Counted from the stretch's first letter, positions 29,758-47,982 are shown. The stretch: DNA of 64,000 nucleotides from Candidatus Hydrogenedentota bacterium (GCA_963668025.2 CAXXTH010000010.1:192001-256000); one strand, 5' to 3'. Made by a program: numbers and translations. The notes: generated from the sequence alone by a model not told the origin.

Positions 29758-31353
29758 CTATCTAAATTCGAGGCCGAATATCTCGGCTTCTTTCAAGTCG
29801 AACCGCAGCACTACATCTTCATCAGGAGCCAATCCCAAGGTGTCGTGCTCTTTCCAGCACACGGCGGCCCAGTGCATATCTCCGAACAAAGAGGCGGCGT
29901 TCTCCATCTCCCGTCCGGGAATCGCTTCACCGGTGCTGCGATACGCCGCCACGCGGATATATCCGCCCCGCCGGGTCTTGGCGTTGATATACAAGCGTAC
30001 GCCCGGAGGCAGCACGGGGATGGTCTCGAATTGCCCTGACTGCTCTGCTTGGAGTGATATTAATCGTCCTTGCGGCCACCGCGCATATCCTGTCCGGCGT
30101 TGCGCCTTGACACGGGGATATTTGTGGGGCACGTTGAATCCCGTGTATGGCAGCACCCAGTCGCCGTTGGGCATCTCCGTCAGATTGGGGTGGGTATACA
30201 CGCATCCGCCATTCCACTGGCCGAATGCGCCGGTTTCTAGTATCGGCTCCTGTGACGCGTACTGCCATAGCAGGCCATCGTGGCTGGTGGCCAAGGCGAT
30301 CCAGGTCTCGTCGTGATGGCATAAATCCCATACCGCTGGGAACATCAGATGATGTTCAGGCGCGCCTGGGATGGTGGTATAACAGTTGGTGTACAATACT
30401 TCGGACGGGCGCATGGCTGGGCTGGCCTGCAAGGCTGCCTCCGGCAGAGAGAAATGCTCGAACTGATTGCCCCTCGCGATGCCCACCGACCGGCGTGCGC
30501 TGTTGAATGTGTCGCCCGCCGAGTACGGCCTGCCTCGCTCCGAGCGGGGCAAGTCCGCGTAATCCCGGGTATAGAGTACATATTCGCCTAGATTTGCGTT
30601 GAACGTGCAGACCAACTGGGTGTCGCAATGGGTGATCACCAACGGCGTGTCATACTCCCGCCATGCAATCCCGTCAGGTGAAACGGCTCCCCGCACGCCC
30701 ATCACCATATTTACATCCGTGCGAAACGCCCGGACGTCTATATCTTCTGGCCAGCGCTCCTGGTAGCGCGCCGCTTGCCCGGGGCTCCATGAGTTGCATT
30801 CCGCCACGAGTTTATACCGTTCCTCCGGCGTGCCCATGGGATCGCGAAACACTGAGCACCCACCCCCTATGAAACAGGATGTTTGGAACACGATGTTATT
30901 TTCTTTCGATGAATCATGTTCGATCTGCATGCACTTTGGGGCGCGCCAATGGTATCCATCATCCGATTCACGGTAGGTAATGTAATGATTTGGCCGCTGG
31001 CCCGGTTTGAAAATCTGTAAATCACCCCAGCCCGTGGCGATCCACGCCCGGTATAGTCCGTCTTCCCGGAACAACGTGCCCATGGCACCCTCGCGCTCCC
31101 ATGGTTTGTCTAGTTGCAGCACATTTTCCTCCAGCTCCGCCGGATATGCCTTCAAACAAATACCCCAGGGATTGCATGCCTCCGGCAGGAGTTTGGCGTC
31201 ATATGGACCTTCTTCGCCCACTACGCTCACATCCGCATTTGCCGTATTCCGCCATCGCGAGAACCCCTGGCTCACAAAGAAATAGTTCGTGAAGACGATG
31301 CGGTTTCCCAGCAGCTCATATGGAACGCCTGAGAGCTTTCTCCTTGCGCACAT
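29758..31353 (-). CDS. putative beta-propeller glycoside hydrolase-like protein
   Basis: Asp-box-like SDDGYHW, SPDGIAW and SHDGLLW repeats, PWERE, C-terminal beta-sandwich; no signal peptide. Confidence 0.6.
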   Translation of the reverse strand: MCARRKLSGVPYELLGNRIVFTNYFFVSQGFSRWRNTANADVSVVGEEGPYDAKLLPEACNPWGICLKAYPAELEENVLQLDKPWEREGAMGTLFREDGLYRAWIATGWGDLQIFKPGQRPNHYITYRESDDGYHWRAPKCMQIEHDSSKENNIVFQTSCFIGGGCSVFRDPMGTPEERYKLVAECNSWSPGQAARYQERWPEDIDVRAFRTDVNMVMGVRGAVSPDGIAWREYDTPLVITHCDTQLVCTFNANLGEYVLYTRDYADLPRSERGRPYSAGDTFNSARRSVGIARGNQFEHFSLPEAALQASPAMRPSEVLYTNCYTTIPGAPEHHLMFPAVWDLCHHDETWIALATSHDGLLWQYASQEPILETGAFGQWNGGCVYTHPNLTEMPNGDWVLPYTGFNVPHKYPRVKAQRRTGYARWPQGRLISLQAEQSGQFETIPVLPPGVRLYINAKTRRGGYIRVAAYRSTGEAIPGREMENAASLFGDMHWAAVCWKEHDTLGLAPDEDVVLRFDLKEAEIFGLEFR

Positions 31354-31437
31354 GCAATAGTTCCCTTCTGCATCAAACTTATGATGAACAATTCTGGCTG
31401 GCCTTTCTTGGGATGTTTTTTCCCTAGTGGGGACAAT

Positions 31438-31486
31438 ATATCAAAATATGATTCAAAAGTCATCTAAAATATTACATATGTTGCAT
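31438..31486 (+). promoter_or_regulatory. candidate AraC/RhaS-type operator A (divergent region)
   Basis: ATATCAAAATATG-N14-TAAAA-N11-TTGCAT; same geometry as three other sites in the locus. Confidence 0.6.
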
Positions 31487-31610
31487 TTCCGCTGGCTCGT
31501 GTCTGATGAGGGTCTTTGCGGGAAGCCGCGATGAATTTGAGCATCCAATTGCGCTATACTGGTTTTTCAGACGTGGAAGCGTCATAAATATGAGGCAGGA
31601 TGTACGACTC

Positions 31611-32519
31611 ATGAATTCCGGCAACACGAATCAAACCACGGTGCCTGTCATGCGGCTCCAGCGGTATGAACGTTCCCATCGCATAGAAGTGGAAGCAGGC
31701 TATCCCTTCGCTGAGCTGTGTGGATATCTGCCAGTCATCGACCTCATAGAGCTTCGCCAGTGGGATGTCGTGCGGAAATTCCCCCGGCACAGCCACGATG
31801 ATTTATTTCATTTGGACCACTTTCTGGATGGAGAAGGCACTTATGTGATCAATAACCGTCTCAATCCGATTGAGAAAGGGCATTTCTACTTTATTCCGCC
31901 CCATGTGCCCCACCAAGTAAAGGTGGCGGAAAGTAGCACGTTGATCCATCTATCAGTAAAATTTAGTTGTCCGGGGCTTGATTTTGACGCCATCCCTACT
32001 CTTTTCGCGCCCGAGCCGGAAGTGGCCCAGCGTGTGCAAGACACCTTAAGAGCGGCAGCCGAGCTTCTTTTCGATGATGAACGCCAGTTCATGCTTGCGT
32101 CCCTCATGATGGCCCAGGCATTGGCGGCTCTTCACCTCGCAGCTCAAGAAACGGGTGAGACGGTAAATGAACACATCCGCATTGTCGCCGCGAAGCGTTT
32201 CATGGAGGAGCATTTCGCCCAGCATATTACGCTCGATGATATCGCCCAAGCGGCGGGAGTGGGAGGGCCCCATCTGTGCCGTGTGTTTAGAAAAGAAACG
32301 GGCCAGACACCCTTTGAATTCTTGAGAAAAATCCGGATTGATTGCGCCAAATACTGGTTTTCCCAAACCGATGAAAAACTCGCCGATATCGCGGTGTATA
32401 CCGGGTTCGGCTCTTCCCAGGAAATGAATCGCGCTTTCCGTAAACTGACAGGTATGAGCCCTCGCCCATACCGCCAGATGCTGCTGAACATAAGCGCCGC
32501 CCCCTCTGAGCCAGCGTAA
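31611..32519 (+). CDS. AraC family transcriptional regulator (cupin plus double HTH)
   Basis: PRHSHD cupin, ITLDDIA, HLCRVFRKETG, GFGS...RAFRK; start chosen by alignment with the 47074-47982 paralog. Confidence 0.92.
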   Translation: MNSGNTNQTTVPVMRLQRYERSHRIEVEAGYPFAELCGYLPVIDLIELRQWDVVRKFPRHSHDDLFHLDHFLDGEGTYVINNRLNPIEKGHFYFIPPHVPHQVKVAESSTLIHLSVKFSCPGLDFDAIPTLFAPEPEVAQRVQDTLRAAAELLFDDERQFMLASLMMAQALAALHLAAQETGETVNEHIRIVAAKRFMEEHFAQHITLDDIAQAAGVGGPHLCRVFRKETGQTPFEFLRKIRIDCAKYWFSQTDEKLADIAVYTGFGSSQEMNRAFRKLTGMSPRPYRQMLLNISAAPSEPA

Positions 32520-32562: not shown

Positions 32563-33600
32563 TTATCGAACCGCAAGGTCGTATAACGCGAGTAAATTCT
32601 CCGTAGGCACGTCATCGGTTAAGTTTTGGCATGCCATGAGGATATAGCCGCCTTGTTCCCGGCCCAACGATGTATATGCGCGGCATTCGGCGCGGACTTC
32701 CTCTGGTGTGCCGAATGGCAGAGTCTGCTGTACGTCGACGCCTCCATGAAAAGCCAATTGCCCGCCGAATTCGGCAACGAGATCCGGCAAATACATGCCC
32801 GAGGCCCTTGCCTGCACCGGATCAAGAATATCCACGCCATCCGCTATCAAACTCGGAATTAACGCGTGAATGGAGCCGCACGAGTGGAACATGACCCGGC
32901 ATCCATAATCATGGGCTAGATCGAAAAAGGCCTTTTGCGGGCCGCGAAAAAACTCTTGCCACTGCGCGGGCGACATGAGCAAGCTGGCTTGTGTGCCGTA
33001 GTCGTTTCCGAAATAGGCGATGTCCAGCATGCCGCCGCATGCATCCAAGTAAAGGCGGGTAACTTCCAGGTAGTATGCAACCACATGGTCCACAAGGGCA
33101 TGGACCAGTTGCGGCTGCACCAGCATCCAAGCCAGCAGATTTTCTTCTCCTATCATCCATCCCACTTCATGGAAGAATGGGCACCACGGCGAGCCATAGG
33201 TGGCATGCCGGCCATGGAATTGGGCGCACATTTTCCGAATGCCTGAATAATCCAGCGCCGCCGGATCTGGCCAATTGTGGGCGTGGATATCGTCCAGCGT
33301 GGCGCCATCCTGAAAAGGATAGATGGTTTCCATCGCGATATTGGATGTGTTCTGCTTCGTCCGGACCCCAAACCGGGACCGGACGAAGCCATCCTCTTCA
33401 AGTGTTGGCGGCGGGCAGAGTTTCGCATGGGAAATGCGCCGCATATCCACTTCGAGCGCTTGCAACAATTCCTCTTCACTATGCACGCCCAGACGCTCCA
33501 TGAGCCGTGGAGTGACATTTCCCTTCGCCAGATAATCCACTGGCGCACGGTCCACCGGGCGGTGTTCGATAGCGGCCAATACCCGTTCCCGTTCCGTCAT
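32563..33600 (-). CDS. uroporphyrinogen decarboxylase/MtaA-CmuA family protein
   Basis: MTERERV...DRAPV, GNDYGTQ, FHSCG, GGVDVQQTLPFGTPEEV, GGYIL...VPTEN. Confidence 0.88.
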   Translation of the reverse strand: MTERERVLAAIEHRPVDRAPVDYLAKGNVTPRLMERLGVHSEEELLQALEVDMRRISHAKLCPPPTLEEDGFVRSRFGVRTKQNTSNIAMETIYPFQDGATLDDIHAHNWPDPAALDYSGIRKMCAQFHGRHATYGSPWCPFFHEVGWMIGEENLLAWMLVQPQLVHALVDHVVAYYLEVTRLYLDACGGMLDIAYFGNDYGTQASLLMSPAQWQEFFRGPQKAFFDLAHDYGCRVMFHSCGSIHALIPSLIADGVDILDPVQARASGMYLPDLVAEFGGQLAFHGGVDVQQTLPFGTPEEVRAECRAYTSLGREQGGYILMACQNLTDDVPTENLLALYDLAVR

Positions 33601-35855
33601 TATGGTTTTTCCTCAAGGTCCACCACGAGCATTTCATGCTCGTCAATTTGGGGTATGGTTACGCGCACATAACCTTGTTCCGTTTCGACTTTAGGCTCAG
33701 CTCCGGAAGGAACGATGGCCATGTGCTTGATCGCGGCAGGCAAACGCAGCGTGACATGGGCGTCATGAATGGGCGTGATTTCATCTAGCGTGTCCCGCTG
33801 GCTGCGTTCAAATAATCGCGTGGACATGGGGGGAAGGTTCAACAGATGGACCACCATGCGCTGATGTTCGTTCTGCCAGAAGGCGTTGCTGATGATCTGC
33901 GCGGGCGCTTCGACTTGCACCGGCGGCGGAGACAGTTGAATGAGTGAAGTGAGGATATGTTTGATCGAGCGGTATGGCGACTGGTAGTAACCTTGGGTCA
34001 CGTCGTCACATATATAGATGGCCTCGCCTGCTCCTATCCGATTGCGCACGATGGCCGGTTTGCCTGCGAGATCCGGCGCGGGTGCGAGGTAGGATTTGCC
34101 GGTTTCTGTAGCGAGCGCTTCCGCGCCCGGGAGCGCGCTGATCAGCGTCCGGCGCGTTTGCCAGGTGAAGCCGGGCAAGCCGTTGTTCAGCGCGGGCACA
34201 GACAACTCACGCGACCAATGCGGCGGTTCCAAATCCGTCTTATTCAAGGTGTCTTCGTAATGCGCGCCGAACAAATCGCCCAACCGGAAATCGTTCTGGC
34301 GGTTGCCCCACTCGTCATACAACGAGGTTTCATACGTGGCGATGATGCGCCCGCCTTCCTTGACATAGGTTCGAATGGCCTCGCAGGCCTCCGTGCTCAA
34401 ACAGGCCACATTGGGAAGCACCACCACCGGGAAGCGTTTCAACTCTTCCACGGTGAGCGTGTTGTCGAATAGATGGGCGTATTGCACATGCCCGGCCATG
34501 AGAATGGATACTAAGCCGAAGAAGGACTCCGTGAAGAGCCGGTCCGTGTTCCGGGGCTGATCTTCGCGGCGCTGCCGGAGCCCCCAAAAGTCGCGCGTGT
34601 TATTGCTAAGCACCACGCCGCAATACGGAACCCGTTCGCCGCCAAAATAGGCCTCGCGCGCTTTCAGTGCGGCATTGATTTGAGTATACATCTCCGGTTG
34701 TACGGCCGTGCCGGTGTGGACGCCGCCTTCCAGCCAAATTTGGCTGCCATACGTGAAGGCGCTCAATGCCGACATGCGCAATCCTAGCCCATCGCTGGGC
34801 GTATTGAGATTCCAAAGCGGTATGTGGGTGGATTCCGTGAACGTAGGCTGCCACATGTCGCATCGAATCGGATTCATGTCGGATGACATGGAAAGCCAGA
34901 ATGGCGTGTTTTGCGCTGGATTGCTAGGCTCGAGCCGGGCGTGGTTCGATGCGCCAATCACCAAGGGAAAGCGTGACAGAGGCACGGCTTCCCGCCAGCG
35001 GTTCCAGGAAAGGGGGGCAAACTGGCCTCCATGGTCGGCATCCGACACCAGCGGCGTCGTGAAATGCGTGTTGAACGAGAGGCTCACATGGGGATATTCG
35101 GCGCGCACTTGTTCGGCGACCCATGCGCCATTGGCGATATGCCGGTCATAACGCCAGCGGACCCAGCGGCGAAACGCATCTGATTCCCAGTCTTCAGTCA
35201 TGGGCCAATCCAAACCAGATTCTCTCTTCCAATCGGCAGCGCCATGGGCGAACGGCTCCCCCACTTGGTTATAGGATTCCATGCTGAAGCCATCGAGCCA
35301 GAGGCCGTCGGCTCCCAGCGCGCAGATTTCCTTGAGCGCCTGTACAAACAATTCCCGAAACTCCGAATCGAGTGACGCCAAGCGATATCCTGTGCGGTCT
35401 TCCCGGTCCCGGGGGGCATTGGGGTCGAAGCTGGCCGCCTGCCCGGGTGGAATATCCGCATACCGGGGATCTTTGGTGAACATGACTACAGGCGCATAGA
35501 CAATGACCCGGACGTTCTCGCGATGGCAGGCTTCGATGATTTGTTTTAAGGTATCCGGTTTAAAATTCCGCCATTCCGCGAAGGGGAAATATTTGGAAGG
35601 ATAGGTCGCGCCCCAGTCGTCGTCGAGGCCATGCACCATGACTGCGTTATAATCATGTTCGCGAATGACGGACATGAAGGCTTCAATATTGTTAGAGACC
35701 AGCGTGTGCGTCGCACCCAGCATACGCAGCTCATGCTTCGGGGAATAGGCTTCAGCCAGTTCCGATTCTGGCGACGCCCAGGCCAGGCTAGTAAGCACAA
35801 GAAAGGATATTGCCCATATCCTTGCCGCCAGCCCGAGATTCTGATGATTCCACAT
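33600..35855 (-). CDS. secreted TIM-barrel glycoside hydrolase-like protein with GH42-type trimerisation domain
   Basis: Signal peptide, YPSK, IIEACHRENVRV, ADGLWLDG, LPNVACLS...YVKEGG...TSLYDE. Confidence 0.75.
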   Translation of the reverse strand: MWNHQNLGLAARIWAISFLVLTSLAWASPESELAEAYSPKHELRMLGATHTLVSNNIEAFMSVIREHDYNAVMVHGLDDDWGATYPSKYFPFAEWRNFKPDTLKQIIEACHRENVRVIVYAPVVMFTKDPRYADIPPGQAASFDPNAPRDREDRTGYRLASLDSEFRELFVQALKEICALGADGLWLDGFSMESYNQVGEPFAHGAADWKRESGLDWPMTEDWESDAFRRWVRWRYDRHIANGAWVAEQVRAEYPHVSLSFNTHFTTPLVSDADHGGQFAPLSWNRWREAVPLSRFPLVIGASNHARLEPSNPAQNTPFWLSMSSDMNPIRCDMWQPTFTESTHIPLWNLNTPSDGLGLRMSALSAFTYGSQIWLEGGVHTGTAVQPEMYTQINAALKAREAYFGGERVPYCGVVLSNNTRDFWGLRQRREDQPRNTDRLFTESFFGLVSILMAGHVQYAHLFDNTLTVEELKRFPVVVLPNVACLSTEACEAIRTYVKEGGRIIATYETSLYDEWGNRQNDFRLGDLFGAHYEDTLNKTDLEPPHWSRELSVPALNNGLPGFTWQTRRTLISALPGAEALATETGKSYLAPAPDLAGKPAIVRNRIGAGEAIYICDDVTQGYYQSPYRSIKHILTSLIQLSPPPVQVEAPAQIISNAFWQNEHQRMVVHLLNLPPMSTRLFERSQRDTLDEITPIHDAHVTLRLPAAIKHMAIVPSGAEPKVETEQGYVRVTIPQIDEHEMLVVDLEEKP

Positions 35856-35899
35856 GACTCAAGACCTCCAAGGTTATAGGATAGCGCTTGTTTCGCTCC

Positions 35900-35972
35900 C
35901 GTAGCATGGGCGTCTCGCCCATGTGGCGATGGCTTATGACGTTTGCGTCATGGGCGAGACGCTCCTGCTACG
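35900..35972. repeat. GTAG-type REP doublet (REPIN-like)
   Basis: GTAGCATGGGCGTCTCGCCCATG and an inverted copy CATGGGCGAGACGCTCCTGCTAC. Confidence 0.85.
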
Positions 35973-36148: not shown

Positions 36149-37219
36149 TTATCCCATTCCGCCCATGGCCCACATGTCGCGGGACATGTCAATGGCCAGA
36201 TTGACTTTTCCATTACTCGGCTGGGGTTCATTCCAGACCGGATGTCCACTGCCGAACCGGACCCACGATACATGGCCGTCCATGTAGAGCACATTGGAGC
36301 CGCCGGGGCTATGGTTGAAGGCGACAATACCGGAGGACATGTTGGCTAAAGAGTTCAGTGAATTGCCCCAAGCGTCCCACATGACAGCAAGCGTGCTTTG
36401 CCCCACGGAGCCGGAAGCCGGATTGTTGATATCCGTGATGAAGAATCGCTCGACACCTTCCCGCAGCCGGTGGATGCTCTTTGGCAGCGGTGAACCATCG
36501 GCATCTACATATTGGTCATACGTAGACGGAATCGTGAGGTCTTCCGCGCCATGATGAGGGAAATGTACAATGCCGTATTTCCAGTTCTTGGGACATCCGG
36601 CCGCAGCCACGTTAGCCGTGCTGATGGTGGTTGTATCTATCGTAGTGCCCCGCATGCTCATGCGGAACATGGCACCTACTTGCGAAGAAGTCTGGCAGGC
36701 GTACGGCACATATAAGTACGAAACGGGGAACGACAAGACGGAGTGGAGGCATGCTTCTTCCGCTTCATCGGTGCCTTTGGTGGAAGTATCATCGCGGATA
36801 TATTTCACATATTCCTGGATGTCTTTTTCTGTGAAATTGGGGAATGAACCTTTATCGGTCGTCCACCATCCGTAGGTGTCAGAAAAGTCACTACGTGGAT
36901 CTGAAGGACAGGTTTTGATGTTCACATCATTCCAATAATCTGGATATAACGATGCGCTGTCCAGGCCGCACATCGATTCCGAATCCGCGGGGATATACTG
37001 CATGCCCTGTGGAAAAGCCGCACCTTTGGCTTCGCCCGCGTACATTTTGAAGATCACGCCGAATTGTTTCAGATTGCTGCTGCATGACGCCCGCCGCGCC
37101 GCTTCACGGGCGCGCGCCAATGCGGGTAAAAGAATGGCCGCCAAGATAGCGATAATGGCGATAACGACCAGGAGTTCAATCAATGTGAATCCCTGGTTGT
37201 GCTTCCGTCTCTTGCGCAT
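36149..37219 (-). CDS. prepilin-type N-methylation/DUF1559/H-X9-DG protein A
   Basis: [58 protein letters not shown]. Confidence 0.93.
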
Positions 37220-37430: not shown

Positions 37431-39590
37431 TTATGGCATGCTCGCAGTGGGCGCGTTTCCCGGAGCGAATAGGATCTTTATTATCGTTGACACGGGATCA
37501 GATTCGAGCCCAGCCAGTTGAAGCGCCAGCCGTTCGCCGTCTTGCTTGAAGGCAATCGGCGTGTTGCTGGGGAAAACGGATACGCTTGCCACGGCCTGGG
37601 AAATGGAATGTAACTCGATTGATTTCCGGCCATTAAGCCCTATTTTACCTCGTGGATTCTTTAGAATATGCAGATATAACGTATCTCCCTTCGCCACGGC
37701 ATAGCCCCAATCGCCGGATAACGTGGGCACGGGTTTGGTTCCCTTTATCGCGTCGAGACGCGGATGGAGCCACTCGCCGATTTTCACATGCATCTCTTCA
37801 CGGCCAAAACCGAAGCTGTGGTCGAGATCGCAGATGTATCCCTCGCCAATGAGGGAGACCAGGACCCGGAGCCACTCCTGCGGGTCTTGATAATCCGGCT
37901 CGCCTGGCTTGCGATTCGCGGCGCGTTCGGTGCCGTCCCACATTGCCCAAGTAAAGGGATAACGCCAGGTAGCGACGGGCATGTATTTGGGATTTCGGGC
38001 GCACTGGTTTTCCGGCCAGCGGGTCCAATACGGATCCGAGTCGTTGCTGCCTTCCACGGACACGACATCCGCGTCGCCCACGCAGTATCCGATATCCGGG
38101 TAACTCGCCAGGTTGGGCATCACAATACATGCTGGCGCAAGGGTTTTGATCAGGCTATACATGGCGTCGAAATTCCAGTCATATTTGTCTTCATGCAGAT
38201 GATGCGCGCCGTCCAAATAAAGCGCCGCAGGCTGGTATTCGACGCATAATGCCTGGAAGTGGGCGTGCAAGGCGTCCAGATAGGCGGGCCATAAGGTGAA
38301 GTCCTTTTCTTTTTCAAAGGCTAATGAGATGTTGTCGAACAGGCCCACATAGCTGCCAAAACGGACGCCCTGCTCGTGGAACGCTTTTACATATGCGCTC
38401 ATATCTTGGTGGTTGGAGAGTTTGCCGCCCAGTTTTTCGGCTACATCGGCGCTGTTTTTCAGCTTGTCCGCATCCATATTTCCGGGCCAATTTTCGGGAA
38501 GGATGAACCAGCCGGTGGTCGGATAGGCGAACGCATAGCCCTCTTGCGCCAGCATTTCCGCCTGTTGCACGGGATCGCCGTGGGGATAACCATATCCTTT
38601 CACGCCGTGGATCAGGCCGCCCAACTTGCCTTCTTCCATCCATTTCGTGACACGCGTATTCACCTTTAACATGAAATCATGGCAGGCGCTGGCGCCCGTT
38701 GCATCTTGCACCAAGATGCGGAAGGGGATTTCGCCTGTCGCATATCCGCTCACGCCGAGCAATTCGCCTTCCACGCCATCCATATATAAGCCGGAAGGAA
38801 GCGGAGTGGCGGAGGCTGCTTTCCACTGATACGGCGGCGTGCCGCCCGTGGCCATGAAGCGGAAAGGAGACGCGCTGGGTACGCGGTTTTCCGGCTTGGC
38901 GCCGTTGATTTCCAGCCAGACATACGGAAGCCCGGCGTAGGCCGTAGGCAAGGCATTGGTTGTAATACGCAATTCCCCATCCGGCGGCTCGGTGGCATAT
39001 TCAAGGCCGTCAACGGGCTTTCCGTCTTCGGTTTCCAGAGCGGCGTAAAAGCCCCAGACGCCTTTTCCGTTTTGGACCTTGAGCAGGAGGCGGTTCCAAC
39101 CTGTGTTGAGTTTGCCGCTGATGTGGCTGCTGTCGCGTTCGAGCGTGCGCATCAGGCTGTATTCAGAATGTAGAAGCTGTCCGTTCAGCCATACGCGGCA
39201 GCCATCATTTGAACCGATTGCGATTTGGACGGGCTGCTCGATAGGGCTCCATACGTAGACATGGGCATATGCCGCACGCATGTCTGTTGGCTCACCGGGG
39301 CTGCCGGACCGTACGGCGTTAAAGAAGGTATACAAATCCACATAGTCATCCAAATTCCTGCAATATAGGCGGTCGTCGCAGAGGAGCCAAGGCTTTCCAT
39401 CGGACGCCGTATCGATTCTTGGGGCCACGGATGCGGCGTCAAAAGGATCTTGTTCAAATGCGGCATTGTCTTTGCAGGAAAATGTGCCGCAGACAAGCCA
39501 AGTATTGATGCGCCGCTCCAGCGCCATAGCGGGTTGGACGCTCGATAGGAGCATAAACAAGAGGATAATTGATACAACCATTCGCTTCAT
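37431..39590 (-). CDS. secreted PA14-like/Ig-like/GH29 (alpha-fucosidase)-like multidomain protein A
   Basis: Signal peptide; WLVCGTF...GSNDG...GWNRLLLK lectin-like domain; GGTPPYQW...LPSGL Ig repeat; YQPAALYLDG barrel; WG...LYLH C-terminal domain. Confidence 0.65.
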   Translation of the reverse strand: MKRMVVSIILLFMLLSSVQPAMALERRINTWLVCGTFSCKDNAAFEQDPFDAASVAPRIDTASDGKPWLLCDDRLYCRNLDDYVDLYTFFNAVRSGSPGEPTDMRAAYAHVYVWSPIEQPVQIAIGSNDGCRVWLNGQLLHSEYSLMRTLERDSSHISGKLNTGWNRLLLKVQNGKGVWGFYAALETEDGKPVDGLEYATEPPDGELRITTNALPTAYAGLPYVWLEINGAKPENRVPSASPFRFMATGGTPPYQWKAASATPLPSGLYMDGVEGELLGVSGYATGEIPFRILVQDATGASACHDFMLKVNTRVTKWMEEGKLGGLIHGVKGYGYPHGDPVQQAEMLAQEGYAFAYPTTGWFILPENWPGNMDADKLKNSADVAEKLGGKLSNHQDMSAYVKAFHEQGVRFGSYVGLFDNISLAFEKEKDFTLWPAYLDALHAHFQALCVEYQPAALYLDGAHHLHEDKYDWNFDAMYSLIKTLAPACIVMPNLASYPDIGYCVGDADVVSVEGSNDSDPYWTRWPENQCARNPKYMPVATWRYPFTWAMWDGTERAANRKPGEPDYQDPQEWLRVLVSLIGEGYICDLDHSFGFGREEMHVKIGEWLHPRLDAIKGTKPVPTLSGDWGYAVAKGDTLYLHILKNPRGKIGLNGRKSIELHSISQAVASVSVFPSNTPIAFKQDGERLALQLAGLESDPVSTIIKILFAPGNAPTASMP

Positions 39591-39622: not shown

Positions 39623-41983
39623 TTAGAGCGTGATTTGGCCTTCTGATGGAGATGCCGCGCTTCCGTTGACATACACCGATTCGAGAAATGAAAAAGGCGG
39701 CATATGCAATATGACGGCGGACGGTTGTTGCCGCGTGGGCGGCTCCACGGTTATTTCCAGCCTGTGTTCATCTTCACTAATCTCCGCTTTGAGCGACAAC
39801 GGGCCGAATGCGGAAGGCACATGCTGCCAATCGAATCCGCCGTTTTTGAAAAATGCCAGCGGCAGCATGCGGAGCAGATGGAGTTCATCTGTCTGATCTT
39901 CAATGGCGGCGTTCATCGTGAGCTGGATGAAGGTGAATTGGGAGAACACCGTGCCCGAAATGCCTTCCCGGGTTTCTGTTCCGCCGAAAGTCTGTTGGGA
40001 AGCGCCAGCGGCAAGGAGTCCATACAGCCCCATGGAAAACCGTTCGCGTTCGCCGAGTTCGAGGGAATGGTAGATATTCCAACTATAACAAGGCTCGCAG
40101 GAAGAGATTTCCCGGTCCAGCACCGCCGCTTGGGCATGGTTGGAATATGGTCGGTACAACCGCCATTGCGGGCCTTCCCGATACCAGCGCACACTGGCCC
40201 GCATGATGGGATCATCCGCCGCCATCAAACCCGCCCAGGCCAGGACCATGGGGCCTGTGTCCAAATAGAATGCGTGCTTGAGCGACGCAGGCAGCGCCTC
40301 GCCAGGCGAAGTGGGGATAAGCGGGACTTTTTCACCATTGGGAGCTGTCCAGGTGGGTGCGGAGGCTACGGCCTGGCGCAGAATGCGCTGGAATGTTTCG
40401 CGGTACTCTCTCGCCCAGGCATCGAGTGTTTCCCAACGCGGATCGCTGAGGCGTTTCAACAGCAATACGGTGGTTGACAGGCCCTTGTATGCCCATGCGT
40501 CGTTCCAGGTCTGCTGTTCCTCCGTCATGGCGTCATTGGCCACTCCAGCAGGCAGCAGCCCTTTTATGCCGTTGTGCAAGGTATTGAGGCGGGCTTCTTG
40601 AATCCACTCGCAGCCTCGGACGAGCGGTTCGAGCCATTTGTCGAGAAAGGCCGGGTCCATGCTGAGCAAGCCGTGGAAGCCCGCCGCATACAGAATAGCG
40701 CCATGGTCGGACAGCCAATCCACGGCCTTGTAGCGGGGATCATTGCCAAAATAACCGGGATGTTTTTCCAAATGCCGGCTTGGCGGTTTCACCGCGCCTT
40801 GGGCCTTGCGGAAAATTTCGAGATAAGAGGCCACTGCATCGCCATACCCCAAACGCTCCAGGGCCGCCATTTGCAGCGCTTGCGCCGTGGGCCAGATGCC
40901 TTGATACGAGTATCCGCCCGTGAGCAAGGCCGGATCGCCGATTTGCGGATGGCGTTCAGAGACCATGAAACTCAACGGCGCGTAATGGTCGAGATGTGCT
41001 TGCACATATGGTTCGGGAACATGTATGGACGTGGAAGTCTGCAACTGCCTGGCCCAGAACGTCTTGGTTTCCGAGAGCGCGCCCTCGAATCCTAGCGCTA
41101 GTTCGCTGGCCATTGTTTCGTCGTCTTCCTGGCGGAAGGGGAGCAGCACATCGAAGAACGCCCCCTTCCGGCATGGCATGCCCACCATGAGATGCTCGAA
41201 CAGTATGGCCGGCTTCGCATATTCAAAGTTATCTTCGAGAAAGCGTTTGATGGGAATCCATGTAACAGCGCATTCGCCTTTCGGTTGGGCTGGAATCGCC
41301 AGGCGGTTGCGGCGCCCGAATTCTTGATTCATGGCGCGCAGGAATCCTGGCCCGCTCAAATCGGCAGGCCCGGCATAATCCAGCGGCAGGGGATAAAACG
41401 GTGGTTTGTTGAACAGAATGATGTTGTTGAACGCATCCATGCTTGTCGAGATATGATCATTCTGCGGCGTAAGCACTACAGTCAGGCGGTCTACATCATT
41501 CAAAATATCTACAACATCCTTCACTGTAAAACGGAGCCAAAGGAAGAGCGGTTCATCGCCTCGCTTTGTTGGACGCCCGCCCTGCACGTGGGCGAATTGG
41601 CGCTGTTCGAACAACACTTCGCCTGACGCTTTCTCGACAATCAGCACGGGGGCTTTTGAATCCGCCCAACTACACCGGTGCTGTCCATCGGGATACCGGC
41701 CACGGCGGACATGGTAGGATGCATTCTCATGGGATACACTGCCGCCAAGATAGAATTGGGGCGTTAGCGTGAAGCCCATGAGCTGGTCTTCTGGAAACGC
41801 CCGCCGGTTGAAACCGTACGCGCCATATGCGGATGCCGCAATGGCTCCATCATAAAAGACATTGAATTCATAGAGGCTGTCCCGCCAGGAAAGGGTATTC
41901 CAGATCCCACGCTGGTCTGGCCATTCTTGCAATGCGCGTGCGGCATCCCATTCAATGGATGTGGTGTGTTGCATGATATTCAT
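39623..41983 (-). CDS. six-hairpin (alpha/alpha)6 glycosidase-like protein
   Basis: YQGIWP, GLLPAG, WNDAWAYKGL, LHLLRMLP, PSAFGPLS; no signal peptide; start uncertain (41983 or 41974). Confidence 0.6.
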   Translation of the reverse strand: MNIMQHTTSIEWDAARALQEWPDQRGIWNTLSWRDSLYEFNVFYDGAIAASAYGAYGFNRRAFPEDQLMGFTLTPQFYLGGSVSHENASYHVRRGRYPDGQHRCSWADSKAPVLIVEKASGEVLFEQRQFAHVQGGRPTKRGDEPLFLWLRFTVKDVVDILNDVDRLTVVLTPQNDHISTSMDAFNNIILFNKPPFYPLPLDYAGPADLSGPGFLRAMNQEFGRRNRLAIPAQPKGECAVTWIPIKRFLEDNFEYAKPAILFEHLMVGMPCRKGAFFDVLLPFRQEDDETMASELALGFEGALSETKTFWARQLQTSTSIHVPEPYVQAHLDHYAPLSFMVSERHPQIGDPALLTGGYSYQGIWPTAQALQMAALERLGYGDAVASYLEIFRKAQGAVKPPSRHLEKHPGYFGNDPRYKAVDWLSDHGAILYAAGFHGLLSMDPAFLDKWLEPLVRGCEWIQEARLNTLHNGIKGLLPAGVANDAMTEEQQTWNDAWAYKGLSTTVLLLKRLSDPRWETLDAWAREYRETFQRILRQAVASAPTWTAPNGEKVPLIPTSPGEALPASLKHAFYLDTGPMVLAWAGLMAADDPIMRASVRWYREGPQWRLYRPYSNHAQAAVLDREISSCEPCYSWNIYHSLELGERERFSMGLYGLLAAGASQQTFGGTETREGISGTVFSQFTFIQLTMNAAIEDQTDELHLLRMLPLAFFKNGGFDWQHVPSAFGPLSLKAEISEDEHRLEITVEPPTRQQPSAVILHMPPFSFLESVYVNGSAASPSEGQITL

Positions 41984-41999: not shown

Positions 42000-44294
42000 T
42001 CATTTAGAACTGGAAGAAGCCGCCGTGGCTGGTTCCATCTCGATGGCGATAATCGTATCAATGTCATCTACAACGACGCGTTGCATATTGATGATGAGCT
42101 GGCTGTCTTCGATACGAAAGTCCAAATTCATGCCCAGAGGCTCTTGATACACGCGGGTGGCATTTCCTGCGATAGGCCCCACTTTCATTTCGCGTTGCAG
42201 GCCTTGCGCGAAGCCGCGCCCATCGAGCAAACCGGCCATGTTTTCTGGAAGGCCCCGGCTTGATTTTCCTTCGAATCCATATTTTCCGCGTGGATTGTGC
42301 AAGATGTGCAGATAGAGCGTGTTGTTCTTGATGACGTTATATCCCCACAGATCCTCTTTGAGCGGCCCGGGGCGCGTGCCTTCGAGGGTATGGAGCCTTG
42401 GCTTGAGCCATTCGGCCAGGCGCATGCGTTCCGAATGGGTGTAGCGGTCCGGCCATTCCGAATGGTCGAGATTGCACATCACACCCTCGCATGCCATGGA
42501 AACCACCACGCGCGCCCATTCTTCCCAATGAAAATATTCACCGTGATGCAAAAACGCCTGGTCCGTATTGGGGAAGCGCCAAGTTTCATCGGAGAGCTTT
42601 TTAGGGCTATAGCCTTTTTGGCCGTTTGGCCAGCGGCCCCAGCGCCAGTCGAGCGTCTCCGCGCCTTCACTCTCACACACGAGGGCGTCGATATCGCCTA
42701 AGCCGTACTCGATATCCGTTCCAGCATTCGCGAGCACCAAGCATTCCGGGACGAACGTTTTGATCATGCTATACAGGGCGTCTAGCTCATGATTTCCTCG
42801 AGGCTTGCCTGCCTTGAAATCGCTAAAAATCACATTCGCCCCGTCGAACCACATCACCGCCGGGCGGTAGGCAAGGCACAGTTCCTCGACTTGCGCCAGG
42901 CGCACATCCATGTAGCGCGGGAAATTGCTGGCGTAATCATCACCCCCCAGCCCATTGTTTTCGCTTTCAATAAAAGGATAATAAAAGCCCGCGCGCATAT
43001 CGCGGGCGCGCAGGGCATTGGCCAGAGGCCCCACCAGATCACGTGAGGCGTTCTGTTCCCAGTCTGCGCCGGTGGATTTCCCCGCTGAATTGGGGATATC
43101 TGTGGGCCAATAAGCGTTGCCTCCGTCGTTTTTACTCATCATTGCCGCATAAGAATAACCTGCCGCCGCCATCAACGAGGCCTGCCGTTCCGGATCGCCC
43201 AGCCAGGCTTTGCCATTCGGGCCTGGCATGTTGTGAATAAGCGCCCCAAGCCGGGCGTGTTCATGCCAGGCATTAGGCCGCTCCAACACGCTGATCGCCA
43301 GATGCGCCTGGGCGTTCGATCCGGTGGAATCCGTGGCTTCCACGGTGAACTGCGCTTCCTGTATGTGGGCGCAAACGCCTTGGAGTTCGCCTTCTGCCTC
43401 ATCCAAGGTAAGGCCGTCCGGCAGCGCCCCGCCGGTGATGCGCCAGCGATACGGCGGCGTTCCACCTGCCGCCATGAACCGGAATGGCGATGCGGAAGGA
43501 TTATTGGATTCGATCTCGGCGAGGGTGTTTGTACGTTCGGCTTCGGGGATATTCAAGGCAAGCCACACATACGGCCATTCCGAATATCCGCGCGGCATGG
43601 TGTTTGTGGTTATCTCAAGCGGGCCGTTAGGAGGTTTCGTGGCATACTCGAGCCCGTCCATGGGCGCGCTATCTGGATGGCGGATGCTTGCATAGAAGCC
43701 CCACACGCCATACGCATTCGCGATTTTGAGTAGAAGCCGGTTCCAGCCTGCTTCCAACGTGATGGGCGTCCGGTCTTGCCCACGGGCGGCTTGGCGCAGT
43801 TTGCCTTCCACGGAGGCCACCTTCGTATCATTCAACCAGGCTTGAAAGCCGTCATTCGAGCCCACCCATAATTCGCATGCCTGTTGCTCTGGGCTCCATA
43901 CATAGACATGCGCATACGCCGCCACCCATTCATTTGGCCCGCCAGGGCCGCCTTCCCGTTTTGGATGGAAGAAGGTATATAGGTCGTTGTAATCATCTAG
44001 ATTCCGGCAATACAGCCGATCATCAAACATCCGCCATGTCCGCCCACCGGCTTTGCCGCCTTCTAGGGGGGATTGGGCGTCTTCACCCAGATCATCGCGG
44101 TCGAATCCAGCGTAATCCGTGTTGTCAAAGGGCCCTGCCACGAGCCAGGTATTGATGGCGCGCGGCGGTGTTGCCGCGCCTTCGGCCTGCCATGAAACTA
44201 AGCATATGGTGATGAACAGCGAAATGATACAAAAAGGATAGCGTGGTGATCCCGGTATTCCCGGTTTATGAAGCACCCATGAAGACAGCAGCAT
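42000..44294 (-). CDS. secreted PA14-like/Ig-like/GH29-like multidomain protein B
   Basis: Paralog of 37431-39590 (shared DDRLYCRNLDDY, SASPFRFMA.GGTPPY, LYLHIL.NPRGK); YRPAVMWFDG. Confidence 0.65.
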   Translation of the reverse strand: MLLSSWVLHKPGIPGSPRYPFCIISLFITICLVSWQAEGAATPPRAINTWLVAGPFDNTDYAGFDRDDLGEDAQSPLEGGKAGGRTWRMFDDRLYCRNLDDYNDLYTFFHPKREGGPGGPNEWVAAYAHVYVWSPEQQACELWVGSNDGFQAWLNDTKVASVEGKLRQAARGQDRTPITLEAGWNRLLLKIANAYGVWGFYASIRHPDSAPMDGLEYATKPPNGPLEITTNTMPRGYSEWPYVWLALNIPEAERTNTLAEIESNNPSASPFRFMAAGGTPPYRWRITGGALPDGLTLDEAEGELQGVCAHIQEAQFTVEATDSTGSNAQAHLAISVLERPNAWHEHARLGALIHNMPGPNGKAWLGDPERQASLMAAAGYSYAAMMSKNDGGNAYWPTDIPNSAGKSTGADWEQNASRDLVGPLANALRARDMRAGFYYPFIESENNGLGGDDYASNFPRYMDVRLAQVEELCLAYRPAVMWFDGANVIFSDFKAGKPRGNHELDALYSMIKTFVPECLVLANAGTDIEYGLGDIDALVCESEGAETLDWRWGRWPNGQKGYSPKKLSDETWRFPNTDQAFLHHGEYFHWEEWARVVVSMACEGVMCNLDHSEWPDRYTHSERMRLAEWLKPRLHTLEGTRPGPLKEDLWGYNVIKNNTLYLHILHNPRGKYGFEGKSSRGLPENMAGLLDGRGFAQGLQREMKVGPIAGNATRVYQEPLGMNLDFRIEDSQLIINMQRVVVDDIDTIIAIEMEPATAASSSSK

Positions 44295-44407: not shown

Positions 44408-45478
44408 TTAACCCATGCCGCCGCAAGCGTACATGAACCACGATACTTCACGCCCTTGATTGGAGGATGTGCTGTTGGCAGGCTCATTCCAAATGGGGAA
44501 CCTCGAACCGAACCGAACAAACTCGACATGGCCGTCCATATAGAGGACATTCGAGCCGCCCGGGAGATGGTTGAATAAGGGCACCGCATTGATTGCGCCT
44601 TCGCCGACGGAGCCCCAGGAATCCCACATCACCGGAATGACACTTTGCCCTGACGAGCCTGATGCGGGGTTATTGATGTCCGTGATGAAGAAGCGCTCGA
44701 TGCTTTCCTTGAGGCGGTGAATGGTGGACGGCAGCGCGGAGCCATCTTCCTCGGTGATCCCTTTCACGCGCGAGACCATGCTGGGCGAACTCAGGCTGAT
44801 GCTGTTTTCCCATACTTCCGGCCAGTAATGGGATGTTAGCCATTTTTGGGGGCATCCGGCGGCGCGGAAATTGGAGAGGCCTTGCGGATTGTAGCCGTAT
44901 TTATCGACGGCGACATTGGCGGGGCCGCCTCGCAGCACGATTGATAGCTGCGTGGCCGTTCTGCAAGCAAACGGTATGTAGTGGTACGAAAGGGGGAGCG
45001 AGAGCAGCAGATGGGTACAGTCGTGTTTGTCATCGGTGGTCGAATTGGTGGATTGCACGTATTTAAGGTATTCCGCCATATCGTCATACTGCAAATTCGG
45101 GAACGAGGATTTATCGCTGGTGTACCATCCCCATGAATCCTCTAAGTCCGCCCTAGAATCAGATGGGCAGATCATGATGGCTGGGTCATTCCAATAATCT
45201 GGATATAGCGAATCGCTTCCCACCCCAAATAACACGCGCTGAGCGGGATTGTAAGAAGACGCGGGGGGGAAAAGGTCTTTATTTTCACTCGCGTACATTT
45301 TGTAAATGATGCCCCATTGCTTCAGATTGCTGGAGCATGAGGCCCGGCGGGCCGCCTCCCGCGCCCGCGCCAATGCGGGCAGCAGGATCGCCGCTAAGAT
45401 GGCGATGATGGCGATCACCACAAGCAGCTCGATCAAGGTGAAGCCGCTGGCCGTCTTTTTTCGTGGTTTATTCTGCAT
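44408..45478 (-). CDS. prepilin-type N-methylation/DUF1559/H-X9-DG protein B
   Basis: [14 protein letters not shown]..., [41 protein letters not shown]. Confidence 0.93.
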
Positions 45479-45567: not shown

Positions 45568-45596
45568 AGGCGGACACGCGAATACCGTGTCCGCCT
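45568..45596. other. intergenic hairpin (possible mRNA stabiliser or partial terminator)
   Basis: 11-bp stem AGGCGGACACG/CGTGTCCGCCT with no U-tract on the coding strand. Confidence 0.55.
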
Positions 45597-45609
45597 ATTG
45601 GCTAATGGA

Positions 45610-46647
45610 CTACTTGCGGTATTTACGAACAGCGGCTGCCGCCATCGCGCTGGCGAGGGCCGCCATGCCCAGCATGGTCATCGCGGGGAGTTCCGGGCCG
45701 CTGCCGGGATAAGATGCGTTGTCGTTTGGATCCGTGCCGGCGTCCACTTCCGCGCCGTCTTCATACCCATCGTCATCGGAATCCGCATCGTTCGGGTCTG
45801 TGCCCGTGTTGGTGGGGCTGACATACACACCCGTGTCCGTTTCCACTTGATCTTCAAGGCCGTCGTCATCGGAGTCGACGGGGCCTGCCGTGTATTCCAC
45901 CTCGAGCATGGGCCTGCTCTCGGTTGCGGATTGTGCGGACACTTCATCCACCATGCCGATAAAGGTGTCATTGGCGAAGGCATTGAGCAATTCGGGGCCC
46001 GCGCCAAGGATGAATCCAGCATCTATGACCGTTCCATCCAAAATACCTTGGAGATATGCAATGCCAGCCGCCGTGAATTCAAGGACTACTTCCGGCTCCG
46101 TATTGTAATCCACGCCTGACTGGACTGTTGCTTCGGCGATGACATCAGGCAAGGCGTTGTAGGCATCAAAAGCGGGCGCAAGCGGATGGCTCGATGGCCA
46201 TAAGCCCGCCATGGTGCAGCCGGTATGGGGCCAGCATGCCACCTCGCTCATTTGTGAAAATCGCGCTTCTGATTCGTTCCATCCGGCGTTGTCGGAATGT
46301 AAACGCCACGCGAGGAAGGTATGGGGCCATGGCCAAGTGCTCTGATCGCCGCCAATCCGCGCCATGTGGACACGCAAGCGGGCTGAGGTAATGGAGGAGC
46401 TGGACGAAATCGCGGAAATGTCATACCGCATCAATGCGAATCCGGGATGATCGGTGTTCGACCATGCTTCGGCCACTTGGCAATACCCTTCGGAATCTCC
46501 GAAGACGGGCAAGCCCTCGCCCACGGTGGAGCATGCATGATCATAGCTCGCATCGGGCAAAACACCCGCCTGGAATTGAATCACATCAGCCGCAGCGGCT
46601 GTCGTAACCACTGCCATTATGGTTAACATCAGCAGTTTGTGTTTCAT
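45610..46647 (-). CDS. surface protein: DNRLRE-like domain, TSP3-like Ca-binding repeats, C-terminal sorting signal
   Basis: Signal peptide; ALMRYDIS...ITSARLRVH...RPMLEVEY; DSDDDG repeats; tail GPELPAMTMLGMAALASAMAAAAVRKYRK. Confidence 0.75.
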   Translation of the reverse strand: MKHKLLMLTIMAVVTTAAAADVIQFQAGVLPDASYDHACSTVGEGLPVFGDSEGYCQVAEAWSNTDHPGFALMRYDISAISSSSSITSARLRVHMARIGGDQSTWPWPHTFLAWRLHSDNAGWNESEARFSQMSEVACWPHTGCTMAGLWPSSHPLAPAFDAYNALPDVIAEATVQSGVDYNTEPEVVLEFTAAGIAYLQGILDGTVIDAGFILGAGPELLNAFANDTFIGMVDEVSAQSATESRPMLEVEYTAGPVDSDDDGLEDQVETDTGVYVSPTNTGTDPNDADSDDDGYEDGAEVDAGTDPNDNASYPGSGPELPAMTMLGMAALASAMAAAAVRKYRK

Positions 46648-46832
46648 GGTTATTATTTCCTTTCTACGTTTTTTCGCCCTTTCCATCAAGCCTTATAGAA
46701 TCACTTTGCTGAGTACATGGGTGTTGTTTTATCGTGCGCAATGAATGTGTAGCCATTTAAGTAATACATACCCAAAATCGGTTGTTTTAAAGATAAGCCC
46801 TCCTGCCTCGGTAATCCGCCACCATGAAAGCC

Positions 46833-46904
46833 AATGTACCATAGGCCGGCTAATTTGTAAATAAAAAAATTGTTTTAGTGTATAAACAGAGCATATTTTG
46901 ATAT
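46833..46904 (-). promoter_or_regulatory. candidate operator and promoter P3 (head of the locus)
   Basis: ATATCAAAATATG-N14-TAAAA-N11-TTTACA-N17-TACATT. Confidence 0.65.
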
Positions 46905-47073
46905 TCATGCATATAGAGGCGCTATCCGCAGGGAGGCTGGAACAAGAAATTTTGGAGAAATTGGATCGGGGGAGGATAACACTTACGACATTGAATGGCG
47001 GGATAGGCGTTTGATATGAATGAATATCCAGCCGGAATGCACCATGCAGCGCGGTGGGTTTTATTAGCTGCGA

Positions 47074-47982
47074 TTATTCGTTTTCGGAAGAATCCTCGAA
47101 TTTTTTGCAGAGCTTACGGAACTGGCGCGGGCTCATCTTATCCATTTTGCGGAAGGCCCGGCCCATTTCTTGCGCAGTGCCAAATCCGGTGTATTGGGCG
47201 ATACTCGCCAGCCTTTCTTCCGTTTGAGAGAGCCAGTACTTTGCACAACTGAGCCGGATATTGCGCAAATACTCGAACGGCGTTAATCCGGTTTCATGCT
47301 TGAACACCCGGCATAAATGGGGGCCGACGACGCCAGCTTGCCGGGCAAGATCATCCAATGTGATGTGCTCCGCGAAATGTTCTTCCATATATCGTTTCGT
47401 CACCACAACATGCACATGTTCACGGGCGGTTTGCTGTGTTTCCGCGGCCTGCCGATGCAGCTCAACCAATGCTTGCGCCAGTTGCAGGGAGCCTGTTAGC
47501 GTTTGCCGTTCGTCATCAAACAACAATTCCGCGGCCGATTGAAGCAGTGTTTGTACATGCTTGGCCGCCGCAGGCTCCGGCGTGATCACTTTTGGAAGGT
47601 AGCTGGGGTCCAAATCGGGATAAAGGAATTTAATGGATAAATGGACCATGTTGCTGCCGGGTGCGATGTTGAGCTGATGAGGCGTTTGAGGCGGCACGAA
47701 ATAAAATGCGTTTTTAGCGATGGAATAGAGGCGGTTGCCAATCATATACGTGCCTTGTCCATCTATAAAATGGTCGAGGTGGAATAGGCATTCATGTTCG
47801 TGCCTGGGCAGTTTGCGCACCACGTCCCATTGGCGCAGTTCAATCAAATCAATCACCGGCAATGCGCCTTCCAGATGGGGCAGTGAAACGGCTTGTTCTG
47901 TACGCTCGGTAAGTTGCGGGCGCGAAAAACGAAGCAAGCGCATGACGGGTGTTTTTGTTTCATTGGCGCGGTTAATTTTCAC
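47074..47982 (-). CDS. AraC family transcriptional regulator (paralog of 31611-32519)
   Basis: Shared LPVIDLIELRQWDVVRK, AAELLFDDERQ and MEEHFA.HITLDD segments. Confidence 0.92.
   Translation of the reverse strand: MKINRANETKTPVMRLLRFSRPQLTERTEQAVSLPHLEGALPVIDLIELRQWDVVRKLPRHEHECLFHLDHFIDGQGTYMIGNRLYSIAKNAFYFVPPQTPHQLNIAPGSNMVHLSIKFLYPDLDPSYLPKVITPEPAAAKHVQTLLQSAAELLFDDERQTLTGSLQLAQALVELHRQAAETQQTAREHVHVVVTKRYMEEHFAEHITLDDLARQAGVVGPHLCRVFKHETGLTPFEYLRNIRLSCAKYWLSQTEERLASIAQYTGFGTAQEMGRAFRKMDKMSPRQFRKLCKKFEDSSENE

Follow-up and report, generated by a model that had tools for sequence, protein, structure and literature searches.

In Bacteroidota, polysaccharide utilisation loci (PULs) bring together a local regulator, a surface binding protein and exported as well as cytoplasmic glycosidases, and dozens of such loci occur, each with its private specificity gene. 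Here we describe a locus of about 18 kb at positions 29,758 to 47,982 of a 64,000-nucleotide stretch (the window) from a Candidatus Hydrogenedentota bacterium (GCA_963668025.2, CAXXTH010000010.1:192001-256000; contig C10:192001-256000 in our numbering). It resembles the SusC/SusD/SusE-F loci of Bacteroidota in having a local regulator, a putative surface binding protein and exported and cytoplasmic glycosidase-like proteins, and it very probably serves carbohydrate use. The locus works like a PUL, yet it is no SusC/SusD PUL: neither in the locus nor in the genome did we find a TonB barrel, a plug domain or SusD, the private gene is a prepilin of the DUF1559 family, and the surface protein is tail-anchored rather than a lipoprotein. 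The reading that we tentatively favour is that the DUF1559 proteins are substrate-specific minor pilins, which catch glycan outside the cell and import it via a secretin by means of a retractable pilus that they share and whose genes lie elsewhere.

Pilus-type systems have been connected with uptake before. The type IV-like pilus MUL2 of Akkermansia (amuc_1098-1102) has been linked with the attachment and uptake of glycans (PMC13174399). The present genome has a similar pilus locus, whose PilM and secretin are best matched by the Amuc_1101 and Amuc_1098 models, and this PilM recurs in 24/24 genomes; the scores are, however, far under the family cut-offs, and MUL2 is one core machine, for which PMC13174399 reports no pilins specific to single loci. 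PMC4471445 presents the Sulfolobus bindosome and Neisseria ComP as receptors with class III signal peptides, which serve sugar and DNA uptake, respectively, on type IV filament machines. The DUF1559 proteins share this type of signal peptide, and ComP is among the structural matches of one of them (Z 3.3). In contrast to our diderm host, the bindosome belongs to a monoderm archaeon and its subunits are described as sugar-binding proteins, whereas ComP is one small pilin, unlike the 65-69 paralogs found here, whose insert is large and whose fold is unmatched. DUF1559 is known as a pilin-like family that has expanded in Planctomycetes and whose genes often have signal-peptide genes on their flanks (PMC8567305), with 68 paralogs in Planctopirus (PMC10632474), and dextran binds to planctomycete pili-like fibres, the proteins of which are not named (PMC5394234); background on DUF1559, pili and pilin receptors was also drawn from PMC5352709 and PMC2754498. 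The family was called exclusive to the Planctomycetes-Verrucomicrobia-Chlamydiae (PVC) group in PMC4807772, an account from which its occurrence in this probable Hydrogenedentota genome departs. We found no literature linking DUF1559 to loci of carbohydrate-active enzymes (CAZymes) or glycans in a search whose coverage excluded most subscription journals and supplements. The association between DUF1559 and glycan genes is measured in this work, whereas the mechanism is what we infer.

We favour capture and import because TonB-type and SusD proteins are missing from the genome and TonB barrels are sparse in the phylum, and the pilin profile matches all genomes tested; because genes for glycosidases, regulators and sugar importers are over-represented at distances of up to 4 kb from the pilins; because pilins precede ABC binding proteins and part of the pilin units have no exportable cargo; because PilT-family ATPases and an Amuc_1101-like PilM are encoded; because a pilin core with a variable insert is predicted; because a CruR-type leader heads one pilin gene; and because ComP, the bindosome and the dextran-binding planctomycete fibres offer precedents. 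The locus consists of 11 genes, ten on the minus strand and AraC1 alone on the plus strand, and contains two copies of a candidate operator:

29758..31353, minus strand: cytoplasmic protein with beta-propeller and beta-sandwich, GH43/GH32-like fold, unnamed family (AlphaFold2 (AF2), Foldseek), divergent from AraC1
31438..31450, minus strand: 13-bp AT-rich candidate operator, copy 1, in the divergent AraC1/propeller promoter
31611..32519, plus strand: AraC regulator 1 (AraC1; cupin and HTH_18 by Pfam), 60% identical to AraC2, start from ribosome-binding-site context
32563..33600, minus strand: cytoplasmic enzyme of UroD/MtaA fold (PF01208, E 3.6e-16)
33600..35855, minus strand: exported GH151-like putative glycosidase with GHL6 barrel, GH42 trimerisation domain and C-terminal sandwich (Pfam, PDB profile)
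36149..37219, minus strand: DUF1559/H-X9-DG prepilin-type protein a (PF07963, PF07596, TIGR02532, TIGR04294), ATG at 37219 backed by a ribosome-binding site
37431..39590, minus strand: exported protein with N-domain, Ig domain (He_PIG) and GH29-like barrel (Alpha_L_fucos 22.2 bits), paralog a
39623..41974, minus strand: cytoplasmic six-hairpin-glycosidase-like protein, putative fold, unnamed family (ESM Atlas features)
42000..44294, minus strand: exported protein with N-domain, Ig domain and GH29-like barrel (Alpha_L_fucos 52.1 bits), paralog b
44408..45478, minus strand: DUF1559/H-X9-DG prepilin-type protein b (the same four models), AF2 core with a variable insert of about 200 aa
45610..46647, minus strand: tail-anchored surface protein with signal peptide, CBM96-like domain, TSP3 stalk and LPxxxxxG-transmembrane-basic tail, 132 bp upstream of pilin b
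46892..46904, plus strand: 13-bp candidate operator, copy 2, upstream of the surface-protein/pilin operon
47074..47982, minus strand: AraC regulator 2 (AraC2; Pfam)

In the order of transcription AraC2 is followed by the tail-anchored surface protein, pilin b, GH29-like b, the six-hairpin-like protein, GH29-like a, pilin a, the GH151-like protein and the UroD-fold enzyme and, past AraC1, by the beta-propeller. Plausible ribosome-binding sites precede the main starts across the locus, and the clustering of its genes exceeds chance. A preliminary description of this DNA had recognised the locus, its reading frames and the pairs of AraC, pilin and Ig-GH29-like paralogs, all of which were borne out; the pairs are 60%, 52% and 37% identical, respectively. 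It had also listed a UroD-family enzyme and a C-terminally anchored surface protein, which were recovered by PF01208 and by our anchor profile, and had seen no TonB, ABC or MFS gene inside, in agreement with the lack of transporter, TonB and porin family matches (Pfam and NCBIfam) among the 11 genes. Its view of a glycan-utilisation-like locus held as well: four of the five glycosidase-like proteins have a glycosidase fold or family, the six-hairpin one weakly. Throughout, "exported" and "secreted" mean Sec-exported, signal peptides having been assigned by visual inspection and with a crude script, and do not imply exit from the cell.

The same description had placed the pilin-like proteins "instead of SusC/SusD or a transporter", and this proved half right. 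In the 6.15-Mb genome, which is 93.75% complete, PF00593, PF07715 (plug) and PF07980 (SusD) had no match in searches with positive controls, and there is no tandem susC/susD pair. A TonB barrel above the cut-off occurs in only 13/61 phylum genomes of at least 90% completeness, with one to three per genome, and the pilin profile matches all of the 24 genomes tested (24/24), with 13-145 matches each, which are not copy numbers. The envelope is that of a diderm, since OmpA, OEP and LpxK were found; BBP2 and OprB porins were not found in the genome. The claim as to transporters in general had to be given up because importers are enriched beside pilins: ABC, MFS or SSS sugar importers are present in 12 of 51 other DUF1559 stretches, so the pilins could replace at most the outer-membrane step.

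The neighbourhoods of the pilin genes were surveyed by a Pfam scan of all 310 genes (of the 4380 called by our own gene caller) located no more than 4 kb from a pilin, not counting the present locus. As controls we used 133 of the 173 genes in randomly chosen regions over 20 kb away from pilins, leaving out 17 short L073 genes and 23 others; classes were assigned by hand at E <=1e-6. Glycosidases and esterases were more frequent near pilins than among the controls (32/310 vs 1/133, p 1e-4; p 3e-5 with the 17 omitted genes as negatives, p 0.004 for genes of at least 400 aa), and so were AraC/LacI/GntR/DeoR regulators and parts of sugar ABC/MFS/SSS importers (each 21/310 vs 1/133, p 0.007). The enrichment beside CAZymes and sugar-type regulators, for which a genome-wide search had been suggested, was thus found. 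Because genes within one locus are not independent, counts by stretch are safer: a glycoside hydrolase (GH) gene occurs in 26/51 stretches against 1/16 (p 0.0012), and any GH, regulator or importer gene in 32/51 against 2/16.

In three pilin units the next or almost the next gene downstream encodes a sugar ABC binding protein, and the order of pilin followed by a substrate-binding-protein/permease fusion recurs in two further genomes (G031 and G010), thus in three genomes in all. Among 40 loci from seven other phylum genomes, chosen as the top-scoring matches rather than at random, 18/44 pilin units have a sugar-type regulator as their direct neighbour and 3/44 an importer; the order regulator-pilin-enzyme recurs across genomes. 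In 18/56 pilin units the crude signal-peptide script recognised no exportable cargo within the co-oriented run; by the same script 28/56 include a large exported protein and 27/56 an anchored protein. A CruR/DUF2946-like leader open reading frame (ORF) with CxxC, 44 residues and RGPP, i.e. with the CruR spacing, stands directly upstream of one of the 69 pilin genes (C22:8810-9244); according to PMC9426467, CruR leaders control a TonB importer in Bordetella. In another locus (L029:10085-12007) a DUF1559 gene is directly followed by a glycyl radical enzyme and its activase, with a LacI-type regulator, and one of the control loci (L063:5246-9624) carries the type II CRISPR genes cas9, cas1 and cas2.

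The two pilins of the locus are members of DUF1559 / SBP_bac_10 (PF07596) with H-X9-DG (TIGR04294) by all curated cut-offs. Proteins a and b score 40.2 and 33.5 bits with the methylation-motif model PF07963 (cut-off 21.2), 35.2 and 30.2 with TIGR02532 (16.3), 30.3 and 38.8 with PF07596 (23.3), and 24.3 and 26.8 with TIGR04294 (19). The class III signal peptide carries the G-FTLIE motif, whose E5 is invariant across 120 homologs, with the helix almost invariant. In the AF2 model of pilin b made with these homologs (pLDDT 89.7) residues 15-65 form an N-terminal helix of about 50 residues. The top 15 rows of VIA-align are all pilins or pseudopilins (Z 2.5-4.0, rmsd 3-5), the best being PilA4 (Z 4.0), with about 120 aligned residues spanning positions 10-329 of the model. 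For the whole model no PDB match was obtained at Foldseek E <=0.001 or at VIA-align Z >=5, a result that is no proof of a novel fold, and neither program listed a periplasmic-binding-protein fold behind the prepilin helix. The model suggests a pilin core composed of the helix and the C-terminal H-X9-DG strands, split by a variable insert of about 200 residues. Conservation is 0.89-0.97 in the helix and 0.84-0.89 in two late motifs, and falls to 0.2-0.4 in much of the insert, a pattern which we read as a constant assembly part with a variable head. The genome has 65 DUF1559 paralogs by motif scan, falling in 46 clusters, and 69 after four profile additions. In a quick tree the two locus pilins group with a pilin on contig C9, which adjoins a homologous CBM96-like gene (support 95). 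Two other DUF1559 genes are split into two ORFs each (C6:73345-74437 and C18:488982-490053). DUF1559-like heads without the prepilin motif also occur (C12:107303-111870, C3:125484, C22:149214, C10:118527), some of them fused to N-termini that by eye look sigma/anti-sigma-like or peptidase-M56-like.

Machinery on which such pilins could work is encoded in the genome: matches over the cut-offs number 7 for secretins, 7 for PilB/GspE and 9 for PilT-family ATPases (TIGR01420). Gene order and NCBIfam models indicate two full type II secretion system (T2SS) operons, one PilMNOPQ operon and one 33-kb pilus cluster (C17:1558-1592 kb) containing PilB, PilT, PilB, PilC, pilins, a PilM-like protein and a secretin. 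The PilM and secretin of the last (C17:1584-1592 kb) reach 276 bits with Amuc_1101 (cut-off 650) and 139 bits with Amuc_1098 (cut-off 750). The Amuc_1101-like PilM occurs once in each of the 24 genomes, and in 18 of them a second, ordinary PilM was seen at the E-value used. Of the nine PilT/PilU-family genes (among them C17:1075771, 1560405 and 788392; C3:52624; C9:155118; C8:70001) most are far from pilus operons; one pilT is directly upstream of a DUF1559 gene, and two of the ATPases have an N-terminal extension of about 140 aa. A prepilin peptidase candidate was found by motif. The 33-kb cluster also holds a 2607-aa GspK-like protein (L191:11129-18949) and a 2214-aa exported ORF (C17:1577139-1583783), the latter absent from our gene calls.

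If capture and import is the right reading, the system would work as follows. AraC1 and AraC2 would respond to a product of glycan breakdown by switching on the locus, whose end promoters share one candidate operator. The CBM96-like protein, as its weak fold lead suggests, may hold glycan at the surface in the manner of SusE/F. After cleavage of the class III signal peptide the DUF1559 proteins would become subunits of a type IV filament, in all likelihood that of the MUL2-like system at C17:1558-1592 kb, with the helix and the H-X9-DG strands forming the predicted pilin core and the variable insert binding the substrate. Retraction by PilT, for which the genome has the machinery, would draw oligomers into the periplasm, where the three exported GH29/GH151-like enzymes would trim them. 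An ABC or MFS importer encoded elsewhere would then take them into the cytoplasm, to be finished by the propeller, six-hairpin and UroD-fold enzymes.

The surface protein of the locus belongs to a larger set. Using an anchor profile built from 45 tails of this genome, picked by hand for the motif with pilin distances visible, we found 51 proteins whose tail has the motif [LVM]P[VA]xG, then a hydrophobic helix and finally basic residues; their stalks are TSP3 repeats or a PASTA domain. The NCBIfam sorting-signal models matched none of the 18 anchored proteins tested; an exosortase is encoded in the genome. Immediate neighbours of a pilin gene make up 21/51 of the anchored proteins, 20/21 on the same strand (odds ratio 33); 21/55 pilin units have such a partner, and 30/51 anchored proteins are not next to a pilin. 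A phylum-wide cassette of the two had to be rejected: in other genomes the pairing was seen in only 2/52 units with the profile and 2/44 with a generic tail pattern. It follows that the pairing is lineage-specific, or that the profile fails outside this genome. All 4 pairs of homologous anchored proteins adjoin similar pilin heads (0.46-0.94 vs a mean of 0.35). Co-variation of heads and partners gave p 0.34 with 56 heads at a loose homology cut and p 0.0004 with 65 heads at a stricter one, the latter result being weak because it comes from only 4 pairs; co-duplication alone could explain the similarity. The CBM96-like domain of the locus protein itself has an ESM Atlas score of 0.95 to CBM96 clusters; its sole Pfam match is PF24517 at 13.2 bits (E 0.083, cut-off 26), and a word-based search found no homolog besides itself. 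A complex prediction of pilin b (36-356) with this domain scored 0.15, the mark being 0.32, and was not used as evidence.

Several observations weigh against capture and import. It presupposes that the heads bind sugar, that the proteins assemble into a filament and that the genes are co-induced; the pilin fold match is weak (Z <=4.0, Foldseek E >=0.8), and the head of about 290 residues seems large for packing in a pilus or for passage through a secretin. The MUL2-like genes score far under their cut-offs, as noted above, and the pairing with anchored proteins is rare in other genomes. Sugar-catabolic genes are not significantly enriched near pilins (24/310 vs 6/133, p 0.30), and the family probably serves other purposes besides glycan use, since 12/51 stretches lack any sugar-related gene within 4 kb. 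Another outer-membrane route is offered by six AlgE-type barrels and a FadL-like barrel. It is conceivable, though in our estimate unlikely, that capture takes place without import: the pilins would be substrate-specific adhesin tips, surface or released enzymes would cut the glycan, and the products would enter through ordinary porins. The AlgE-type barrels, the anchored surface proteins beside 21/55 units, the size of the head and the description of MUL2 as likely for attachment (PMC13174399) fit this explanation, but these barrels either keep a distance of 19.9 kb or more from every pilin or lie on a pilin-less contig, several pilins are in small-sugar operons with only cytoplasmic enzymes and ABC importers, and the CruR-type leader points to importer-style control.

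The large exported proteins in 28/56 units and the two T2SS operons, which also count against import, would suit an export adaptor equally well, i.e. a private pseudopilin by which a shared T2SS recognises and pushes out the adjoining enzymes or anchored proteins. Both locus pilins are directly upstream of large exported enzymes, 27 units have an anchored protein in their run, and the similar heads beside 4/4 homologous anchored-protein pairs point the same way. We regard this as improbable: 18/56 units lack such cargo, 30/51 anchored proteins do not adjoin a pilin, the head similarity may come simply from co-duplication, and a sister cluster 20 kb away (C10:258527-264512), with a true GH29, a third Ig and GH29-like paralog and a CBM96-like/PASTA anchored protein, has no DUF1559 gene. 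Slightly less probable still, in our view, is a tethered periplasmic binder or sensor, in which the helix is only an inner-membrane anchor and the head, without any filament, passes oligosaccharide to importers, enzymes or signalling. Direct adjacency to ABC binding proteins and to regulators, the latter in 18/44 units of other genomes, would agree with it, as would the fusion of related heads to membrane proteins without a prepilin motif and the fractionation of Tuwongella DUF1559 proteins, which according to PMC8567305 is unlike that of plain pilins; the near invariance of the helix, including E5, across 120 homologs goes beyond the needs of a simple anchor, however, and a core resembling that of pilins is completed by the conserved strands at the C-terminus. 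That an expanded family merely lands in CAZyme-rich accessory islands and has no glycan role seems very unlikely. The 12/51 stretches without a sugar gene, and controls that came from the whole genome rather than from accessory islands, speak for such hitch-hiking; the tight co-oriented spacing (20/21 anchored neighbours on the same strand), the regulator-pilin-enzyme order recurring across genomes and the grouping of both locus pilins with a pilin that neighbours a homolog of the CBM96-like gene (support 95) speak against it.

The locus holds three unnamed glycosidase-like families. The propeller at 29758-31353 is predicted to be five-bladed (AF2 pLDDT 94.4), and its best Foldseek match is the GH43 protein 8hcj (E 1.8e-10), with the endo-arabinanase 8ic1, GH32 enzymes and the GalNAc deacetylase 6n1a among further matches. 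It has 277 homologs, and none of the 120 listed has a catalytic Pfam family (0/120). A paralog at C10:1174337, 87% identical, lies beside another DUF1559 locus; this second propeller/AraC module (C10:1174337-1182345; 87% and 75% identical) stands next to a different anchored protein and a DUF1559 pilin. The six-hairpin-like protein was recognised by ESM Atlas features (0.98; recognition 3187) and has 537 relatives, with weak six-hairpin GH Pfam matches in 3/44 of them; its profile found no match in the PDB. Neither it nor the propeller was named by Pfam or sequence searches, and single-sequence PDB searches gave nothing useful. The 33600..35855 protein, labelled GH42-like at first, matches GHL6 (35.8 bits, cut-off 35), GH42M and weakly GHL10, and has no match to the GH42 catalytic domain PF02449; as its nearest PDB entry is the alpha-L-fucosidase 6tvk (E 2.7e-7), which we take to be GH151, the GH42 label was rejected. 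PA14, the name given earlier to a part of the Ig-GH29-like proteins, had no Pfam match and rests on resemblance. Paralog a is under the PF01120 cut-off of 25.2 bits, and paralog b exceeds it (22.2 and 52.1 bits). When b is aligned to human fucosidase 7pls, WFDG stands opposite WSDG, so that the nucleophile Asp motif is kept, and SKNDGG opposite TKHHEG, Asn-Asp replacing His-His. This His pair is presumably part of the fucose pocket of fucosidases; because of its replacement the substrate of b is probably other than plain fucose, and a plain "fucosidase" label was rejected. The UroD-fold protein may possibly be corrinoid methyltransferase-like; with TIGR01463 (MtaA/CmuA) it scores 66.4 bits, under the cut-off of 235.4. 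The genome has 28 UroD/MtaA-fold paralogs, several in sugar loci, and also encodes the methanol-cobalamin methyltransferase MtaB.

The AraC1 reading frame opens at 31506, its likely start being 31611. The 13-bp site has exactly 2 copies in the genome, both in promoters at the ends of the locus, and a copy with 2 mismatches is present in the paralogous promoter. It was found post hoc, and since 48/1000 shuffles share some 13-mer, it counts only as a modest hint of co-regulation of the locus ends. REP-like hairpin repeats are located at 35896-35972 of the window, between pilin a and the GH151-like gene, and at 48259-48286. Elsewhere in the window there is a group II intron reverse transcriptase/maturase (25369-26832), apparently with near-identical copies in the control loci L062 and L064, and a PEP-CTERM protein beside flagellar export genes that by eye are FlhG/FlhF/FlhA/FlhB/FliR-like (7820-15379).

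How large glycans pass the outer membrane without SusC/SusD in planctomycetes, verrucomicrobia and their relatives is the question that this locus addresses, and DUF1559 is among the largest unexplained families of these phyla. The present genome is a clean case: TonB receptors are missing, about 65-69 pilins show a measured enrichment of glycan genes beside them, and both motors for retraction and a candidate pilus machine are encoded. With more reserve than for the locus itself, we consider it possible that in Hydrogenedentota, and perhaps more widely in PVC bacteria, a system based on pili takes the place of Sus, in which one retractile type IV machine would be served by dozens of locus-specific DUF1559 pilins, whose inserts would act as receptors pulling glycans and other nutrients through a secretin, in the genomic and regulatory slot that TonB-dependent receptors occupy in other bacteria. 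If this is true, DUF1559 genes would mark substrate loci as susC/susD pairs do, and would be a source of new glycan binders.

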